This document shows, one piece after another, positions 5,985 to 15,719 of a DNA stretch of 23,044 nt. The translations under genes were made by a program, and so were the position numbers. Every line of letters starts with the position of its first letter. Position 1 is the first letter of the stretch. Source of the DNA: a virus (lineage: Duplodnaviria > Heunggongvirae > Uroviricota > Caudoviricetes); the IMG/VR virus record IMGVR_UViG_2740892487_000010, one strand, 5' to 3'. Below the pieces are notes generated by a model that was not told the origin of the DNA, made no database searches, and saw only the letters and a program-made list of their open reading frames with translations.

Positions 5985-6180
5985 AGTCCTCCCGCGTGAT
6001 CTGCCCGTCGCGCAGAAGCTGGTAGGCTTTGTGTTTGTAGTACCAGTTGATAGCCAGCATCAGCACACCGATCATCAGGCCGCCCAGCGTTGAGGCATCC
6101 TTGATGGACAAATCGCCCAGCCAGGCCAGCACGACGGCGATGCAATACGTGATAAAGGCGCTGATTCGCTCAAGCGTCAT
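5965..6180 (-). CDS. Holin (small, two predicted TMDs; possible pinholin)
   Basis: 71 aa, two hydrophobic helices and a charged C-terminus; directly upstream of and overlapping the endolysin. Confidence 0.65.
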   Translation of the reverse strand: MTLERISAFITYCIAVVLAWLGDLSIKDASTLGGLMIGVLMLAINWYYKHKAYQLLRDGQITREDYESINR

Positions 6181-6183
6181 AAT

Positions 6184-6387
6184 TCAGTCCCATAGCTGGA
6201 CGGTCTGCACGGTGGTGGTTGTCGGAATGTCCGGCAGCTCCACCTGCAGCCCGTGAGGTAAAAAGGGGCCATATTCGGCAAGCCCCGGATTTGCCTTCAG
6301 TACCTGCTCCGTGACACCCTGCGTGCGCCCGTAATGACGCCAGCAAAGCGCGTCCACCGTGTCATACTGATGCGCACGCACTTTCAT
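6184..6387 (-). CDS. X: Tail protein X (P2 gpX-like)
   Basis: 67 aa, the same length as P2 gpX; conserved position between L and the holin; ATGA overlap with the L stop. Confidence 0.75.
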   Translation of the reverse strand: MKVRAHQYDTVDALCWRHYGRTQGVTEQVLKANPGLAEYGPFLPHGLQVELPDIPTTTTVQTVQLWD

Positions 6388-6851
6388 CAGATAAGCTCCA
6401 CTGTGCAGTGCGGCGCATCCTGTACCCGGCTGATGGCCCAGCGGGCGTCACGCCACAAATCACCGCTGGCTTCCGCCAGTTCCTCGCCCCGCTTCACACC
6501 AGACGCCGTGGCGTCATAGTCCTGGTAACGTTCGTTGAGCATGGCGCGTGCCCAGCAGTAAACCGCGTTGAAATAGTGCTGAATGCGCTCACTTTTGCCG
6601 TCCAGTTGTTCCGCCGGAACCTCTGCCAGCGAGGCATATCCCAGCATCTGCTGGCGTCTGCGAAACTCATACAGTTCTGCGTTGACCTCCGAAATTGCCG
6701 ACAGCGCAACCTGCTTTAAACGCGGCTGCGTCACCGTGCCGTCAGTGCGCATCACACTGCGAAACTCCGACAGGTCCACATCAGGCCAGAACGGCGTATT
6801 TCTGATGATTTCCGCCTGTTCCGGTGCCTGTTCTGGTGCAACAAACTTCAT
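6387..6851 (-). CDS. L: Head completion/stabilisation protein (P2 gpL-like)
   Basis: Track ORF 6387..6914; likely true start is ATG at about 6851 (MKFVAPEQ...) preceded by GGAGA. Confidence 0.75.
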   Translation of the reverse strand: MKFVAPEQAPEQAEIIRNTPFWPDVDLSEFRSVMRTDGTVTQPRLKQVALSAISEVNAELYEFRRRQQMLGYASLAEVPAEQLDGKSERIQHYFNAVYCWARAMLNERYQDYDATASGVKRGEELAEASGDLWRDARWAISRVQDAPHCTVELI

Positions 6852-6946
6852 GCTGCTTTCTCCTGAAATAGAGGGCGGTGGACGGAGTTTTGATGTGGCT
6901 GTGCCTTTCGCCACCCCGTGCCGCCCGTGCGCGGGGGCACGTTCTG

Positions 6947-8675: not shown

Positions 8676-9510
8676 TCAGCAATTGGTCAGAGTGTCAGCG
8701 GGGGCGTTACCGCCTGTTGCACGCTGGCGGTAGTCCTGGCGACTGTCTTCATGACTCAGCTTGTCCACCAGTTCGTTAAAGGCGGTTTGCTGTGCCTGCA
8801 GGGCAGTCTCCAGCTCAGACAGGCGTTCTTCCTGCTCAGACAGGGATTTTTCGGTGCGTGCGCTCAGGTTCTGCTGCTCAGTGGCGACCAGCTCCACGGC
8901 CTTATGCACATCAGAGAACCGGGCGTCATCGGACTGCTCTTTTTTGGTAAACAGCGCCGTGACGCGGGCAAACAGGGACGGTTTGTCGTCCTGGATTTCT
9001 TCCAGTTCGATCACCGTTTCCTCTGCAGCGGTAAAGAGATTGGCAGGATTCTGCTTGCGGTTTGCCAGCGGGTTATGGGCTGCACTGGCGCTGAATGTCA
9101 GCATTTCCGTACCCAGACTGGCAGGGTCATCAGTGGCAGCCAGGCCGACCAGATAGGCTTTGCCCGTATCAGCGAACTTCGGGCTGACTTCCATAGAGGT
9201 GAATAATTTCTGGCCTTTTTTTCACCAGTTCCACCAGGGACTCCGTTGGCTCAACGTCGGCATACAGCGCCATCTTGCCTGCCAGCGGACCTTCCGTGAT
9301 TTCTTCAGCAAACAGCGCCGTCACCTTGCCGTAGCGGTTAAAGGTGCTGTCCGGCAGATAAGACTTGATGTGCTCAAGGTTAATCAGCGCGGTATACACC
9401 GCCGGGTTGTAGCTGGCTGCCATCTGTTCCAGCCATTCACGCTGGATTTCGCGTCCGTCGGTGGTGGCACCTTCCACCCCGATGCGAAAACGCTTTGCTT
9501 TCACTGTCAT
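8676..9510 (-). CDS. O: Capsid scaffolding protein (P2 gpO-like), frame interrupted (track ORFs 9169..9510 and 8676..9194)
   Basis: N-terminal piece has [12 protein letters not shown] and INLEH; C-terminal piece has [23 protein letters not shown] and the terminal [14 protein letters not shown]. Frames switch at a 7-nt A run (minus strand, about 9216-9222); removing one A restores ...[21 protein letters not shown]... Confidence 0.8.
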
Positions 9511-11421: not shown

Positions 11422-12460
11422 TGGGAAAGAGTAAGAAGAACCGCGCTGCGTCGACGAAACAGATCCAGCATAAAAGCCAGACTTCAGCCGAAGCATTCAG
11501 CTTCGGTGATCCCGTTCCTGTTCTGGACCGCCGCGAACTGCTGGACTATGTGGAATGCGTACAGATGGATCGTTGGTACGAGCCGCCTGTGAGTTTCGAC
11601 GGACTGGCGCGAACCTTCCGCGCCGCCGTGCATCACAGCTCACCGATTGCAGTGAAGTGCAACATTCTGACCAGCACCTACATCCCTCACCCGCTGCTCA
11701 GCCAGCAGGCTTTTTCGCGTTTTGTACAGGACTATCTGGTTTTTGGTAACGCCTACCTGGAGAAACGCACGAACCGCTTCGGTGAAGTTATCGCCCTTGA
11801 GCCTGCACTGGCAAAATACACCCGACGCGGGTTAGACCTTGATACCTACTGGTTTGTGCAATACGGCATGACTACGCAGCCGTATCAGTTCACGAAAGGC
11901 AACATTTTTTTCATCTGATGGAACCGGACATCAACCAGGAGATCTACGGCCTGCCTGGTTATCTTTCTGCCATTCCGTCAGCTCTGCTCAACGAGTCCGC
12001 CACGCTGTTCCGCCGCAAGTATTACATTAACGGCAGTCATGCAGGCTTCATCATGTACATGACCGATGCAGCGCAGAACCAGGAGGATGTGAACAACCTC
12101 CGCAATGCGATGAAAAGCGCCAAAGGTCCTGGTAACTTCCGTAACCTGTTTATGTACTCGCCTAACGGTAAAAAGGACGGGCTTCAGATTATCCCGTTGT
12201 CAGAAGTGGCGGCGAAGGATGAGTTCCTGAATATCAAGAACGTGAGCCGGGACGACATGATGGCGGCGCATCGTGTGCCGCCACAAATGATGGGGATAAT
12301 GCCTAATAATGTCGGGGGGTTTGGGGATGTGGAGAAGGCCAGCCGTGTATTCGTCCGAAATGAGCTAATGCCACTACAAAAGCGATTACAGGAGATGAAT
12401 GATTGGCTTGGCAAGGAGGCGATACAGTTTAATACCTACTCGCTAGATATAGTCCCATAA
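11421..12460 (+). CDS. Q: Portal protein (P2 gpQ-like), frame interrupted near 11905-11911
   Basis: Track ORFs 11418..11918 and 11918..12460 together about 346 aa; a run of 7 T where 8 T would give ...GNIFFHLMEPDINQEIYGLPGYL...; N-terminal MGKSKKNRAAST... is portal-like. Confidence 0.85.
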
Positions 12461-12463
12461 TAA

Positions 12464-12490
12464 GAAAAGCCACCGTTTGGTGGCTTTTCT
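12464..12490. terminator. Bidirectional rho-independent terminator between convergent Q and the cargo operon
   Basis: AAAAGCCACC-gttt-GGTGGCTTTTCTT: GC-rich hairpin flanked by an A-run and a T-run, directly after the Q stop and before the minus-strand ORF stop at 12495. Confidence 0.7.
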
Positions 12491-12494
12491 TCAT

Positions 12495-13236
12495 TTACTC
12501 AATAGGTTCAAACTCATCCTGAGGAATCAGCGTCGATTGACAGGCTTGGCTTAGTACTCCTGATAATTTACATAATAACCGATAGTTATGAGGAGCATCA
12601 TCGCTAATCTTTTCGACCGTTAAAGTGATTGATTTTGGATCATCCAATAACATCTTCTTGATATCATTACTTAAATACCTAGGGCAGTAACCAACGATTT
12701 CAGCTGGTTTATCTGCACGAACGACAACAGCATCCCCATCGTATTCATTTTGAAGATCCAAGCAAAGACGCAAAATTTGCCCCGGTTTCAATTCAGATAC
12801 ACGAGCATTAGCTAAGCTATTTAAGTAACCAAGTCCATGTAAGAAGAAAAAATGCTCAAAGTTACCATCAGAATCAACATCAATTTTTTTTGAAAATCTG
12901 CAGCTGATCAGTGCTTCGTAAGCCTCCCGAGCGAGCAAGAATATCGATAGGATTTACCTTATCTTCTTCAAATCCAAGCCATTTAATGAAACTCGGATAC
13001 TCTGGACGTCTCGGTGATAAAAGGCGATTTTTAAAAAGAGGAAACAATTCTTCCGAAACATAAGTTTCACGAACATCACTCATGCCGCTAAACTTTGTAA
13101 ATTTAGTAGATTTAAGAGCACCTTTGGTATACCTGAAAACATACCCCGATTTGCGCTCTTGCAAGTTACCAACAACATGCCAGTCTCTGGTATCTGGTGC
13201 CTGCCATGCGACGTAAACGGAGTTTGTATTAGTCAT
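12495..13236 (-). CDS. HipA N-terminal-subdomain-like (HipS-like) domain joined to a C-terminal HIRAN-like domain; frame interrupted at an A/T homopolymer (track ORFs 12880..13236 and 12495..12938)
   Basis: N-part VGNLQERKSGYVFRYTKGAL...ELFPLFKNRLLSPRR...DILARSGG parallels the HipA N-terminus (VGELTKLANGAHTFKYAPEWL...AVFNFFDNLLPDSP...DLLSEIGRDSVG). C-part LRLCLDLQNEYDGDAVVV...EIVGYCPRYLSNDIKKML resembles the HIRAN signature. ATG at about 13234-13236 overlaps the kinase stop (ATGA). The distal ORF lacks an ATG (TTG only) and the frames switch at an 8-nt homopolymer near 12884-12891. Confidence 0.6.
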
Positions 13237-14147
13237 TCTAGTAACCTTCTGCGATTTTCCATTACCATTAACGTTGCAAATCTACGTGCACTGTCGGATA
13301 TACACGATGAAGGCACTTGGTTAAACACATCTGTAATGGAATCTTCTGTTAAAACGCTCAACTTACCTAACCAATGGTCGCGAGCGGCAACTCTCCCTTC
13401 AACTGCATGTTGAAATGCTTCAACGGTCAGCAAGGGCTTTTTATCAGTTTTTGCTTTGAATAGCTCAGAGCGAGCTTTTCTTACAAAACATGGGATTTGT
13501 CGATTTTTATCTTTAGTATTAAGCCGTTCGTTACGCTCATCATCTAACATCTCCCTTCCTAAACTAGCGGCATGATCGTATGTTGGACACAAAAACTGCT
13601 CACCAGTTTCATTGTTAAGCATGATCGCCCAATTTTCATGATGGCGATCTTGATTACTCACAAGTGCATCGAGCATCAAAAATCCACAAAATACATCTGC
13701 TGCATTTAGCCCGGTTAGATCATATACACTCGGAGGAGGCTTGATAGATTCCCTATCTAAACAACCCAATACCCTTGTGACAGTGTGTTCTCTGACCCTT
13801 ACCGGCTTTTCCCCGGCTTGTAAAGGCCCTGGATAATCGAATGTCGAACTGTGAAGCACTTCATTTCCCATTACCATCCGGAAACCAGATGGAATGATAT
13901 TCTGAGTCACCACACCGAATCGACCATTGTATCGCGCCAAATCATAGCTAGCATGTGGAATGTTAAGCAAATGACATAACTCAGCAGCACACTTTTCAGA
14001 CCAATGCTCGCCAGTACCTGGCCTAGAGTACTTAAACAACTGCAAATTTACAGTGTCATCGGAGAAATAGAACCAAAACTTCTCTTTGGTTCCTAACTGT
14101 TCAAGATCGTTAGCTACGGGGCTAAGCTCTACCAATTGGTATGGCAT
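13233..14147 (-). CDS. HipA-family Ser/Thr protein kinase core (HipT-like, lacks the N-terminal subdomain)
   Basis: 304 aa; Gly-rich loop LGTKEKFWF (compare HipA VAGAQEKTAL), catalytic motif LVSNQDRHHENWAIM (compare HipA GATDGHAKNFSV), metal-binding motif LCPTYDHAAS (compare HipA TPFYDIIS); ATG with AGGGA ribosome-binding site. Confidence 0.7.
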   Translation of the reverse strand: MPYQLVELSPVANDLEQLGTKEKFWFYFSDDTVNLQLFKYSRPGTGEHWSEKCAAELCHLLNIPHASYDLARYNGRFGVVTQNIIPSGFRMVMGNEVLHSSTFDYPGPLQAGEKPVRVREHTVTRVLGCLDRESIKPPPSVYDLTGLNAADVFCGFLMLDALVSNQDRHHENWAIMLNNETGEQFLCPTYDHAASLGREMLDDERNERLNTKDKNRQIPCFVRKARSELFKAKTDKKPLLTVEAFQHAVEGRVAARDHWLGKLSVLTEDSITDVFNQVPSSCISDSARRFATLMVMENRRRLLE

Positions 14148-14299
14148 CTGACATCCCTGTTTAGCGGATTATGAATAAGTTAGGTTCCATTTTATCCAAA
14201 CATTGTCAAATACTCTAAGATTTATTAGATGATAGAGCGATACTGTATGCATGTCCAGCAATCAAATCAATATATAACTCTTATATGACTTAGCGCGCG

Positions 14300-14322
14300 C
14301 TCGTATCCCCGCCACGCCTGCC
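14300..14322. other. Putative cos (cohesive end / terminase recognition) site
   Basis: Minus-strand GGCGTGGCGGGGA... matches the first 13 nt of the 19-nt cohesive end as I recall it for 186/P2 (GGCG(T/A)GGCGGGGAAAGCA.); the 3' part diverges; lies between the tum-like gene and the portal gene as in 186. Confidence 0.4.
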
Positions 14323-14363
14323 CGCTTTATGTAGTGGTTTTCATGCAGGTGCATGATCTACGC

Positions 14364-14387
14364 AAAAGCCCGCCAGTTCTGGCGGGC
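14364..14387 (-). terminator. Hairpin with T-run on the minus strand (possible terminator insulating cos and the cargo operon from leftward read-through)
   Basis: GCCCGCCA-gttc-TGGCGGGC stem-loop preceded on the plus strand by AAAA, i.e. followed by TTTT on the minus strand. Confidence 0.35.
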
Positions 14388-14660
14388 CTTAGCGAAAACG
14401 ATCCTCAAACGATCATGCAATCTCATGCAGCATAGACATGCACAGACGAGTAAAGCGAATCGGACCTTACGCAAGGTGAACTCCTCAGCGGGCATAATCA
14501 GTATGTCGGAAGATCTCTAAAAATAAATAATTCGGTTAACAGGTATGCTTACAAAAGCATATATTTGATTAAAAATCATGTAAGGGGGAGGATCTCAAAC
14601 TGAATCGCCACGGGTTTTACAAATTTCGATAGTCTCTCTAACGTTTCGGCTGAGGTCAAA

Positions 14661-15086
14661 ATGAAAAGCTTTTACGTATTAATTTTAATTCTGGTTGCAA
14701 GCTTTGTTAGCGTCCCAGTTCAGGCGGTAACAGCTAAAAACTATGAGAAAGGAACTAAAGCTCAACAGAAATCAATATCTTACCTTTCATGTGCATTCTA
14801 TGGCAGTAGCACACAATTAGATCCTAGCTACACGGAGCAAGTACCTACAGCCGATATCAAGATATTACAGAAAGCAGCTTACCACGCTTACAACGATGCG
14901 CTCTCATACTTTGGCTATGAGGAACCAGATCACGAACAACGCATAATTGATTATGCTGAATTTGTGGCGTCGCAAGAAGCTGTGTTATGGGATAAGCCGG
15001 GAATGAATGGAAAGCAGGTAACACTAATTGCTCGTTCTCTCTACAATGAGAGTAACTGTAACTTGTTACTGGACTCAATTAAGTAG
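14661..15086 (+). CDS. Secreted/periplasmic protein of unknown function (cargo gene)
   Basis: 141 aa; N-terminal signal peptide MKSFYVLILILVASFVSVPVQA; AT-rich codon usage unlike the phage core; GAGG ribosome-binding site; possible promoter TTTACA-17-TAACGT at about 14616-14644. Confidence 0.55.
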   Translation: MKSFYVLILILVASFVSVPVQAVTAKNYEKGTKAQQKSISYLSCAFYGSSTQLDPSYTEQVPTADIKILQKAAYHAYNDALSYFGYEEPDHEQRIIDYAEFVASQEAVLWDKPGMNGKQVTLIARSLYNESNCNLLLDSIK

Positions 15087-15245
15087 GAAAAAGATGGTAT
15101 TTTGCCCGTAGTTTCAACCTTAATCTCCGAACCTGTCGCAGAACGGGCGTTCACTCATCAAATAAACGCCACACCTAACGCCTCACTGTACTCGTTGTTC
15201 AACCTTGCTGACGCCAGAACCAAGTTCAGACGCCAGCAACTTTTC

Positions 15246-15479
15246 TTAATGCAGCCAGCTGTCGTCTTCCCACACCTTCTGCATAATCTTCATCACTTGT
15301 TTTCTTTCTTCGTCCAGTTGCAGTCCGGTCAGTTCCACACCGTTAGAGCTACCTTTGCGGATGCGAATTACCATTTTGGGATACAGGGGGCGCAGATTGC
15401 GGTAAAGCTCGGATTCAAGGGCGTCCAGGGTAGACTGGCTAATCTTCTGCTCTTTATCGATCATTATTTCAATGCGCAT
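15246..15479 (-). CDS. DinI-family protein, likely SOS-inducible antirepressor (phage 186 Tum-like)
   Basis: Track ORF 15246..15551; DinI-like core starts at ATG about 15479 (MRIEIMIDKEQ...LDALESEL...WEDDSWL) with AGGTGA ribosome-binding site; LexA box upstream; same position as tum in 186. N-terminal extent uncertain. Confidence 0.6.
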   Translation of the reverse strand: MRIEIMIDKEQKISQSTLDALESELYRNLRPLYPKMVIRIRKGSSNGVELTGLQLDEERKQVMKIMQKVWEDDSWLH

Positions 15480-15719
15480 AAAGGTCACCTCAGCTGATGA
15501 CATCCATTGAGCGGTTGTATTCGTGGGTTCTGATTTTTGCCATGAGTTCATCAGTCAATTCAGAAACCCACTGCAGAGCCAGCCCCTTCTCTTCATCACT
15601 ACACTCACTAGCCGCTACAAGCTTAAGAAAAAAAATCAATGCGCTGGAGCTTCAAAGACTCCAAAAAATAGTCCTGCATCTTTCCTCCTATGACACCAAA
15701 GCAATACTGTATATATAAC

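Follow-up and report, generated by a model that had tools for sequence, protein, structure and literature searches.

The window analysed here, a stretch of 23,044 nucleotides (IMG/VR record IMGVR_UViG_2740892487_000010, Caudoviricetes), encodes a genuine HipA-type kinase and its HipS-like/HIRAN partner, carried as cargo of a P2/186-like prophage beside the packaging site. The two genes (13233..14147 and 12495..13236, minus strand) very probably form a hipIN-type module, identical with PDC-M03 of PADLOC and with the 'HIRAN-kinase' of Rousset et al. A preliminary description, which named the domains correctly from the raw sequence alone, was right in substance. It had presented the pair as a candidate new module and as a HipA/HIRAN combination without a described precedent, but hipIN appears in PMC8262856, PDC-M03 in PADLOC and, in PMC9122126, the RefSeq accessions of the two genes from a 99.6%-identical E. 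coli locus. The architecture of the pair, the mechanism proposed for it and its place in the cos-proximal hotspot of P2 were thus all in print before this analysis; the module is already known and its role in defence is that of a candidate. The features of the cassette are the following.

12495..13236, minus strand: hipN-type partner gene, with a HipS-like N domain and a HIRAN C domain; 246 aa if intact
13233..14147, minus strand: hipI-type kinase gene, an intact ORF of 304 aa with a HipA-superfamily core lacking N-subdomain-1
13233..13236, minus strand: ATGA stop/start overlap of the kinase stop with the next ATG, coupling hipI and hipN
12884..12891: T8 run (A8 on the coding strand) with a +1 insertion, which breaks hipN at the junction of its two domains
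14229..14257, minus strand: candidate sigma-70-like promoter (TGGACA, 17 nt, TATCAT; 10/12 in a consensus scan) in cassette-specific DNA upstream of hipI
14285..14443: cos core conserved in phages taken to be P2-like, holding the cos-like GGCGTGGCGGGG at 14307-14318 (minus strand); right boundary of the cassette
12462..12491: GC-rich hairpin (13 bp) in the gap that separates the portal stop (12460) from the convergent hipN stop (12495)

The translation of the kinase ORF contains the three HipA motifs that had been reported for it: LGTKEKFWF at residues 18-26, in which GTKEK (residues 19-23) is the Gly-rich loop, DRHHEN at residues 167-172 and PTYD at residues 188-191. Pfam HipA_C matched it with E 3.8e-4, under its curated cut-off, and the NCBIfam HipA/YjjJ model only with E 0.12; NCBIfam gave no usable name for the proteins of the module and the PHROGs matches were to families of unknown function only (8728, 8026 and 7437). 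An AlphaFold model of the kinase (pLDDT 83.5) was compared to known structures with Foldseek. CtkA was the best match (TM 0.68-0.75; 3akj with E 1.5e-11 and TM 0.68/0.74), followed by HipA and HipT, and the model aligned only to the kinase core of these three proteins, in agreement with the claim that the N-terminal subdomain of HipA is missing. Sequence-only searches of the PDB with the single module proteins gave nothing significant, while the kinase family profile retrieved CtkA as its sole significant match (E 3e-4), with NQDRHHENW facing NFDRHNGNW and PTYD facing PIFD; no sequence alignment to HipA that spans the activation loop, the fourth canonical motif, was obtained. Since these PDB searches gave little beyond CtkA, the fold assignment rests on predicted structures. 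Pfam HipA_C and Couple_hipA both scored under their curated cut-offs, so that predicted structures and the PADLOC models described below are also the basis for calling the kinase and the HipS-like domain.

Conservation was evaluated on 75 kinase sequences from one-per-species loci (35-89% identity). G19, K21, K23, D167, R168, N172 and D191 are invariant, and T20, E22, H169, H170 and H192 are conserved in 97-99% of the sequences. The 97-100% conservation of the Gly-rich loop, the catalytic loop and the Mg-binding Asp predicts an active enzyme under selection. Together with the modelled fold, it shows HipI to be a Ser/Thr-type kinase core of the HipA fold, in which the catalytic residues are fully conserved and the N-terminal lid subdomain is absent. 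E16, which is also invariant, presumably occupies the place of the autophosphorylated Ser150 of HipA, an assumption on which no claim is based here.

In the window the partner is read as two ORFs in different frames, 12880..13236 (118 aa, HipS-like) and 12495..12938 (147 aa, HIRAN). Once one A is removed, the gene encodes 246 aa, and this product matches P0121, a database protein that stands for a cluster of 89 member sequences, with 100% identity. Pfam HIRAN (PF08797) matched the partner above its gathering threshold (E 3.9e-14, 52.7 bits for a cut-off of 24.7), and Couple_hipA matched weakly, under its own cut-off (E 0.0046). In the predicted structure (pLDDT 89.2), the N domain matched HipS from the E. 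coli and Legionella HipBST systems (7ab3_E, TMt 0.73, and 8ezr_A, TMt 0.74), and the C domain matched the HIRAN structures 4s0n, 4xzg and 3k2y at E ~2e-5 with TMt 0.6-0.79, the HLTF HIRAN domain (4s0n) having E 1.8e-5. A search of the PDB with the partner profile reached the bacterial HIRAN protein 3k2y only at E 0.4. In the same one-per-species analysis, the HIRAN residues N163, D166, A169, G182, Y183 and P185 are 93-100% conserved, and the motifs NxYDxxA and GYxP are conserved in the partner family. Profiles and predicted fold together show that HipN is a HipS-like domain, homologous to the lid that the kinase lacks, fused to a HIRAN domain. The domain order given in the preliminary description therefore stands, but not its single ORF, as the frameshift had been read through. 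It had also proposed profile searches and structure prediction of the pair; these led to CtkA, HipA and HipT for the kinase, and to HipS and the HLTF HIRAN domain for the partner.

The described ATGA overlap is present at 13233-13236, and homologous pairs also have stop/start overlaps (11 nt in locus L002 and 8 nt in locus L006). The kinase gene precedes the HipS-like gene and there is no HTH ORF, and hence no HipB-like gene, in the cassette (12461-14285), as had been noted.

In order to assign the module, both proteins were compared to the PADLOC HMMs. PDC-M03A matched the kinase with E 1.4e-121 and PDC-M03B the frameshift-corrected partner with E 3.4e-93, each with full-length coverage, so that the two component HMMs that define PDC-M03 matched adjacent genes. 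PDC-M03 consists of a HipA-like protein (A) and a HIRAN protein (B), and no difference from the module studied here was found. PADLOC derives its PDC candidates from genes embedded inside known defence systems and makes their candidate status explicit; the suggestion that this pair is a defence candidate is thereby borne out. Gerdes et al. 2021 (PMC8262856) described hipIN, with 14 modules in their tree and a HipI subclade within main clade XI, and proposed that HIRAN senses DNA ends, leading to kinase activation and abortive infection. Their hipIN kinase is a short core of 279-321 aa that has no N-subdomain-1 of HipA and whose Gly-rich loop follows shortly after the N terminus. The kinase of the window has the same build (about 300 aa, 304 exactly, no N-subdomain-1, GTKEK near the N terminus), and LGTKEKFWF, DRHHEN and PTYD are present and align to the catalytic and Mg-binding regions of CtkA. 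The HipS-like and HIRAN domains of the partner are found together in the frameshift-corrected gene and in its relatives, whereas in the window they lie in different frames. Apart from this frameshift in hipN, there is no architectural difference from hipIN.

The same two genes appear in the survey of Rousset et al. 2022 (PMC9122126). Their Table S5A places WP_001146828 and WP_000185757 in the P2 gpA-gpQ hotspot, and these are the RefSeq accessions of the two genes in L001, a 99.6%-identical E. coli locus. In their Table S6, a system of a Vibrio prophage hotspot is named 'HIRAN-kinase', with the domains HipA_C and Couple_hipA/HIRAN. The P2 system that they cloned under the name 'Exonuclease + HipA' (pFR108; PMC9122126) is different from this module, and the term HIRAN does not occur in the table of cloned constructs that lists pFR108.

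Several related systems share only part of this organisation. In HipBST (E. coli O127, Legionella), the kinase likewise lacks the N-terminal subdomain, which a small HipS-fold protein supplies in trans; the present module differs in having no HipB HTH gene, in placing the kinase first, which reverses the hipB-hipS-hipT order, and in the fusion of its HipS-like domain to HIRAN. Its kinase fold is also nearer to CtkA than to HipT. In a classical HipBA system, hipB lies upstream and the kinase, of about 440 aa, carries N-subdomain-1 in cis, whereas here the kinase has 304 aa and hipB is absent. HipL (Gerdes et al. 2021) contains the same three domains (kinase core, HipS-like and HIRAN) in a single polypeptide encoded by one gene; in the present module, two coupled genes share them. 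CtkA, a HipA-like Ser/Thr kinase of Helicobacter pylori, is the top structural match (3akj) but shares only about 15% sequence identity; it is called a 'proinflammatory kinase' in PDB entry titles, and no link to a HipS/HIRAN partner occurs in the material retrieved.

The cassette is delimited on both sides, between the portal gene and the cos-like site, as the preliminary description had placed it. The portal gene ends at 12460 and is convergent with the module. The intervening hairpin at 12462..12491 (fold energy -21 kcal/mol, z-score -6.8; none of 200 shuffles was as good) is likely a bidirectional terminator. GC content is 0.38-0.45 over 12501-14500, compared with 0.49-0.62 for the morphogenesis genes of the phage on the left side, so that the cassette is indeed AT-richer. 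On the other side, the stretch 14285..14443 is common to 104 phage records, mostly Klebsiella, Yersinia, Escherichia and Salmonella phages, which we take to be P2-like. The cos-like GGCGTGGCGGGG is unique in the window and was matched in 0 of 100 shuffles; judged by the cos sequences of P2/186, it is presumably the cohesive-end site. The promoter candidate at 14229..14257 lies outside this shared core, which starts at about 14285; promoter-like sites are not enriched over shuffles, which makes the scan weak evidence for this candidate.

The break in hipN most likely stems from a homopolymer error, made in sequencing or in assembly, and not from biology. The window contains seven insertions, each of which lengthens an A/T run to 7-8 nt, and no deletion in a homopolymer. 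At the site matching 12884-12891, the related locus L001 has a run of 7, and its hipN (the one locus inspected) is an intact 741-nt CDS of 246 codons plus stop. An artefact is the likeliest explanation, since the corrected protein has an identical database match, hipN is intact in every relative examined and six further A/T-run insertions are present, at 9216, 9528, 11118, 11905, 15628 and 16885. Four of these six break the scaffold, terminase, portal and gpA genes, so that five of the seven disrupt either an essential phage gene or hipN. Damage to so many genes is also what a dead prophage would show, and the A8 run is present in the window sequence. The frameshift could accordingly be genuine, leaving hipN in a decaying prophage as a pseudogene, or split between a protein with the HipS part alone and a detached HIRAN fragment; the speculation of Gerdes et al. 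(PMC8262856) that hipJS came from hipIN through loss of HIRAN fits with such a step. We nevertheless consider this improbable. Insertions only, and only at A/T runs, are a technical signature, whereas neutral decay would have added stop codons and deletions; elsewhere the DNA shares 96-97% identity with a prophage that is intact, and the kinase gene is undamaged. Moreover, HipN is full-length or near-full-length in a single frame at all 58 viral loci, including 19 with a 100%-identical kinase, and each of the 21 closely matching E. coli loci has a HIRAN domain-containing protein annotated at this place. A programmed frameshift, or phase variation, at the A run was considered as well and rejected, as other members of the family do not conserve the run (junction consensus FKRIE) and the six other A/T-run insertions accompany it. 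The homopolymer insertions of this window create false pseudogenes, which calls for care.

The kinase gene is followed by a full-length hipN in 75 of 75 species (genome) loci and in all 57 viral loci with room downstream. The two genes are coupled in translation, and these data show that they always occur together, in this order, across many bacterial phyla. The immediate vicinity of cos and of the portal gene, together with the P2-type portal found after hipN in 39 of 58 IMG/VR loci, could mean that the pair belongs to the conserved core of a phage lineage and serves its life cycle, for instance in packaging near cos. The distribution speaks strongly against it. The full module was found in just 21 of the 1273 E. 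coli genomes matching the region, the rest being partial, among the matches listed at the flanking portal segment, and other E. coli genomes have different cargo in the slot, such as DUF4062. No close DNA match exists among 50,697 deposited phage genomes; relatives in that collection are limited to kinases of 37% identity from phage-like elements of Vibrio cyclitrophicus and to a distant HipA of a Clostridioides phage. Non-phage settings of the pair include the Vibrio cholerae chromosome and loci from cyanobacteria and Acidobacteria. The core-gene reading, which the preliminary description had named as one that would overturn its proposal, is effectively refuted by these data and we regard it as extremely improbable; a variable cos-proximal cargo slot of a P2/186-like prophage, as first described, accounts for them.

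Taken as one blended proposition, the hipIN/PDC-M03 identity and the mechanism of abortive infection inferred for HipIN are, in our judgement, somewhat probable; the mechanism by itself stands at nearly even chances, slightly on the doubtful side. It is built by analogy with the neutralisation of HipT by HipS in HipBST and with the binding of 3' DNA ends by the HIRAN domain of HLTF. DNA ends, either free 3' or single-stranded, would be generated by a superinfecting phage and engaged by the HIRAN domain, and this would release the inhibition. Freed HipI would then phosphorylate a host factor that is essential. As the targets of HipA and HipT are GltX and TrpS, respectively, an aminoacyl-tRNA synthetase or another translation component is the best guess. 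Translation would halt and the infection would abort. The stricter version, in which HIRAN is a direct sensor of phage DNA 3' ends that frees the HipA-type kinase from its HipS-like lid in a working abortive-infection system, is proposed more tentatively, with the balance tilting against it. If true, this would make HipIN the first kinase toxin to be triggered by DNA ends, and its target might differ from GltX and TrpS; as a hypothesis, the idea is already that of Gerdes et al. 2021. Searches of the available literature, which mostly lies outside subscription journals, returned no experimental work on hipIN, HipL, HIRAN-kinase or PDC-M03, and no report in which any hipIN module was examined for toxicity, neutralisation, binding to DNA or defence against phages.

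The same architecture lends itself to two other functional interpretations. HIRAN may instead have its role in autoregulation, binding the operator as the part of an antitoxin that contacts DNA and replaces HipB; the module would then be a plain type II toxin-antitoxin addiction system that stabilises a prophage or island, with no part in phage defence. The absence of a HipB-like regulator from the cassette and the presence of the module both on mobile elements and within chromosomes are consistent with this, as is the fact that Gerdes et al. chose their kinase modules partly for an adjacent DNA-binding putative antitoxin (PMC8262856). We find it unlikely, since the HIRAN domains characterised so far bind DNA ends and not specific operators (PMC8262856), since gpA-gpQ of P2 is documented as an anti-phage hotspot, with many validated defence genes (PMC9122126), and since PADLOC nominated the pair from its embedding inside defence systems. 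Alternatively, HipN may be no antitoxin at all. The HipS-like domain need not be inhibitory, as it is homologous to the N-subdomain-1 that is integral to the active HipA kinase; it might complete HipI as the lid does in HipA, while HIRAN would recruit the kinase to DNA ends, where a DNA-associated phage or host protein would be phosphorylated in a direct, non-abortive interference. HipL, which unites kinase, HipS-like and HIRAN domains in a single polypeptide, is easier to square with such a cooperating unit, and the identities of HipI and HipN co-vary across loci. HipS of hipBST is nonetheless an antitoxin that neutralises HipT (PMC8262856), and HipS-HipT and HipBST complexes have been solved (7ab3 and 8ezr); sequence alone does not separate activation from inhibition, and we give this alternative a little less weight still than the addiction module. 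Release of an inhibited kinase by DNA ends is kept as the working model for HipIN, and the module as a good candidate for an uncharacterised kinase-based defence.

Addiction and defence are not mutually exclusive. The E. coli/P2 copy of the module is compact, at about 1.8 kb including the promoter region, and would be a convenient and easily cloned model for hipIN; its proteins are 100% conserved in many prophages.

The preliminary description had placed the two-gene module between a cos-like site and the portal gene, as an AT-richer operon with an ATGA overlap, and had given its first gene 304 aa and three kinase motifs; all of this was recovered. GC content is 0.38-0.45 over 12501-14500, against 0.49-0.62 in the adjoining morphogenesis genes. 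The portal gene, convergent with the module, ends at 12460. On the other side, 137 bp of cassette-specific DNA containing a weak sigma-70-like site lead from the kinase ATG to a 160-bp core, found mostly in Klebsiella, Yersinia, Escherichia and Salmonella phages, which are taken to be P2-like. With the portal gene end and this cos core as borders, the cassette therefore covers about 12461-14285. Elsewhere the window carries the genes of a 186/P2-like prophage, among them those for CI repressor, CII/CP76, integrase, DinI and gpA.

Features of the module and its surroundings (window positions).
12462-12491: hairpin of 13 bp between the portal and hipN stops (-21 kcal/mol, z -6.8)
12495..12938, minus strand: 3' part of hipN, in a different frame (ORF, 147 aa)
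12880..13236, minus strand: 5' part of hipN (ORF, 118 aa)
12884-12891: A8 run (T8 on the plus strand), site of the hipN frame switch
13233-13236, minus strand: ATGA overlap of the kinase stop (TGA) and partner start (ATG)
13233..14147, minus strand: kinase gene hipI, intact ORF of 304 aa with LGTKEKFWF, DRHHEN and PTYD
about 14285-14443: 160-bp core common to 104 phage records, enclosing GGCGTGGCGGGG
14307-14318: GGCGTGGCGGGG, 5' of the kinase, found once in the window by pattern search
14661..15086, plus strand: gene of a 141-aa protein (ORF, phrog_7437, unknown function)
15249-15551, minus strand: DinI-like gene (Pfam DinI, E 1e-22)
15493-15639, minus strand: small hypothetical gene; its region includes the run at 15628-15635, A8 here and A7 in E. 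coli SCU-106

Pfam HipA_C matched the kinase (HipI) at only E 3.8e-4, under its curated cut-off, and PADLOC PDC-M03A matched it over its full length (E 1.4e-121). The best structural match of the AlphaFold model (33 homologues as input, pLDDT 83.5) was CtkA (E 1.5e-11, TM 0.68-0.75), followed by E. coli and Shewanella HipA and then Legionella HipT. The catalytic and Mg-binding segments of CtkA align to NQDRHHENW and PTYD in the kinase family profile. These analyses show a HipA-fold kinase, active-looking by sequence, that lacks the lid (the HipA N-terminal subdomain). An invariant Glu, E16 (about 14100-14102), lies three residues N-terminal to the Gly of the Gly-rich loop, at what we take to be the position of autophosphorylated Ser150 of HipA; if this alignment is correct, E16 could be a built-in phosphomimic.

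The partner, HipN, matched Pfam HIRAN over the cut-off (E 3.9e-14); Couple_hipA weakly matched its N-terminal ORF (E 0.0046), and PADLOC PDC-M03B matched the frameshift-corrected protein (E 3.4e-93). In the predicted model of the corrected protein (pLDDT 89.2), the N-terminal half resembles two HipS proteins, that of E. coli HipBST (7ab3_E, TMt 0.73) and that of Legionella (8ezr_A, TMt 0.74). For the C-terminal half the matches were the HIRAN domain of HLTF and a bacterial HIRAN protein, 3k2y. HipN is shown to be a translationally coupled partner in which a lid homologue is fused to a HIRAN domain. Profile searches and predicted-structure matches of both proteins therefore confirm the HipA-kinase and HipS-like/HIRAN assignments made earlier.

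The domains of the second gene (12495..13236) had been described correctly, but not its single ORF: the frames change at the A8 run, a frameshift that had been missed. The E. coli SCU-106 locus, 99.6% identical over the 2.1-kb query (window 12300-14400), has A7 at this run and an intact 741-nt CDS (246 codons plus stop) annotated 'HIRAN domain-containing protein' (WP_000185757.1). Deletion of one A from hipN gives a protein 100% identical to cluster P0121 (89 member sequences), and HipN is full-length or near-full-length in a single frame in all 58 IMG/VR loci. Relative to the intact SCU-106 prophage, which is 96-97% identical, the window has seven insertions (9216, 9528, 11118, 11905, 12884, 15628 and 16885), each extending a run of A or T to 7-8 nt; deletions in homopolymers were not found in it. 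Five of the seven each divide one gene into two ORFs (scaffold, terminase, portal, hipN and gpA). That hipN is a genuine pseudogene in this prophage is quite improbable, since the insertions are one-directional and confined to A/T runs, unlike decay; they look like a systematic homopolymer error of sequencing or of the source assembly, which calls for caution with any 'pseudogene' in the window.

Pairing was scored when a HipN homologue lay on the same strand, at most 200 nt 3' of the kinase, with a single-frame match over both domains. Wherever there was room downstream, HipN followed the kinase (75/75 one-per-species genome loci and 57/57 IMG/VR loci), in Enterobacterales, Vibrio, cyanobacteria, Acidobacteria, Tepidisphaeraceae and others. 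Kinase residues G19, K21, K23, D167, R168, N172 and D191 never vary among the one-per-species loci (kinase identity 35-89%); conservation is 97-99% for T20, E22, H169, H170 and H192. At least 93% conservation is seen for N163, D166, A169, G182, Y183 and P185 of HIRAN and for F65-P66, N70-R71, R77-P78 and T109-D110 of the HipS-like domain. Together, these results show that hipI and hipN co-occur obligately, as a unit. The pair also occurs in a non-phage context, on a Vibrio cholerae chromosome. A second variant, 71% identical (cluster P0036, with 146 members), is found outside P2 prophages in four E. coli contigs (L002-L005, gene 6001-6933), adjoining a two-partner-secretion/CDI locus; its neighbours suggest a different mobile island. 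In L003 an AEP-type primase gene is also nearby. A 37%-identical kinase was seen in PQ189286, PQ189287, PQ189331 and PQ189359, small Vibrio cyclitrophicus 'PE' phage-like elements of about 14 kb.

The pair had been proposed as new, which did not hold. The architecture, hipIN, was defined by Gerdes, Baerentsen and Brodersen in 2021 (PMC8262856), who proposed that HIRAN recognises the DNA ends of invading phages, leading to kinase activation and abortive infection; the DNA-end/abortive-infection hypothesis of the preliminary description is nearly identical in wording. The slot is the hotspot that Rousset et al. 2022 (PMC9122126) defined in P2-like phages, the cos-proximal gpA-gpQ region. Their Table S5A includes WP_001146828 and WP_000185757, the RefSeq accessions of the SCU-106 pair; Table S6 contains a system called 'HIRAN-kinase' (HipA_C + Couple_hipA/HIRAN). 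The term HIRAN was not found among the cloned constructs that they tabulate, and the pair was therefore seemingly not tested there. PADLOC, a standard resource for annotating defence genes, also contains the pair: among its 145 PDC candidates, nominated because they lie within known defence systems, PDC-M03 is reported to consist of HipA and HIRAN proteins. Experimental characterisation of hipIN was not found in the literature searched, a result that is not conclusive as most subscription journals lay outside coverage. hipIN is thus already known, as a candidate; apart from the frameshift the original observation is real, and its interpretation is sound in substance.

The full module was present in only 21 of the 1273 E. 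coli genomes matching the region (query 12300-14400). The others match part of the query (the flanking portal segment, among the matches listed), and at the module position other E. coli genomes carry different genes, e.g. DUF4062. hipIN is cargo, not the conserved core gene that had been considered as an alternative, and this distribution effectively excludes a core role in the phage life cycle. A convergent P2-type portal lies just after hipN in 39/58 IMG/VR loci. These portals range in identity from 62% to 100%, so the module either spread in this slot among diverged P2-like phages or was kept there by them.

The location is shown to be a defence hotspot. [quoted passage not shown] This scheme as a whole has, in our analysis, close to an even chance of being right. 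A pure addiction module, with HIRAN as an autoregulatory DNA-binding domain, is unlikely, and somewhat less likely still is that HipN completes and targets the kinase rather than inhibiting it.

On the gpA side of cos, a 730-bp segment (14443-15175) is lacking in the SCU-106 locus. Its DNA occurs at 99% identity or more in 101 of 5426 E. coli genomes (100% in the eight matches listed). The encoded 141-aa protein has a hydrophobic, signal-peptide-like N terminus and no Pfam or PADLOC match; its gene is a second, independent cargo gene of the cos-proximal hotspot. Between the hotspot and gpA lie the DinI-like and small hypothetical genes, as in many P2-like prophages.
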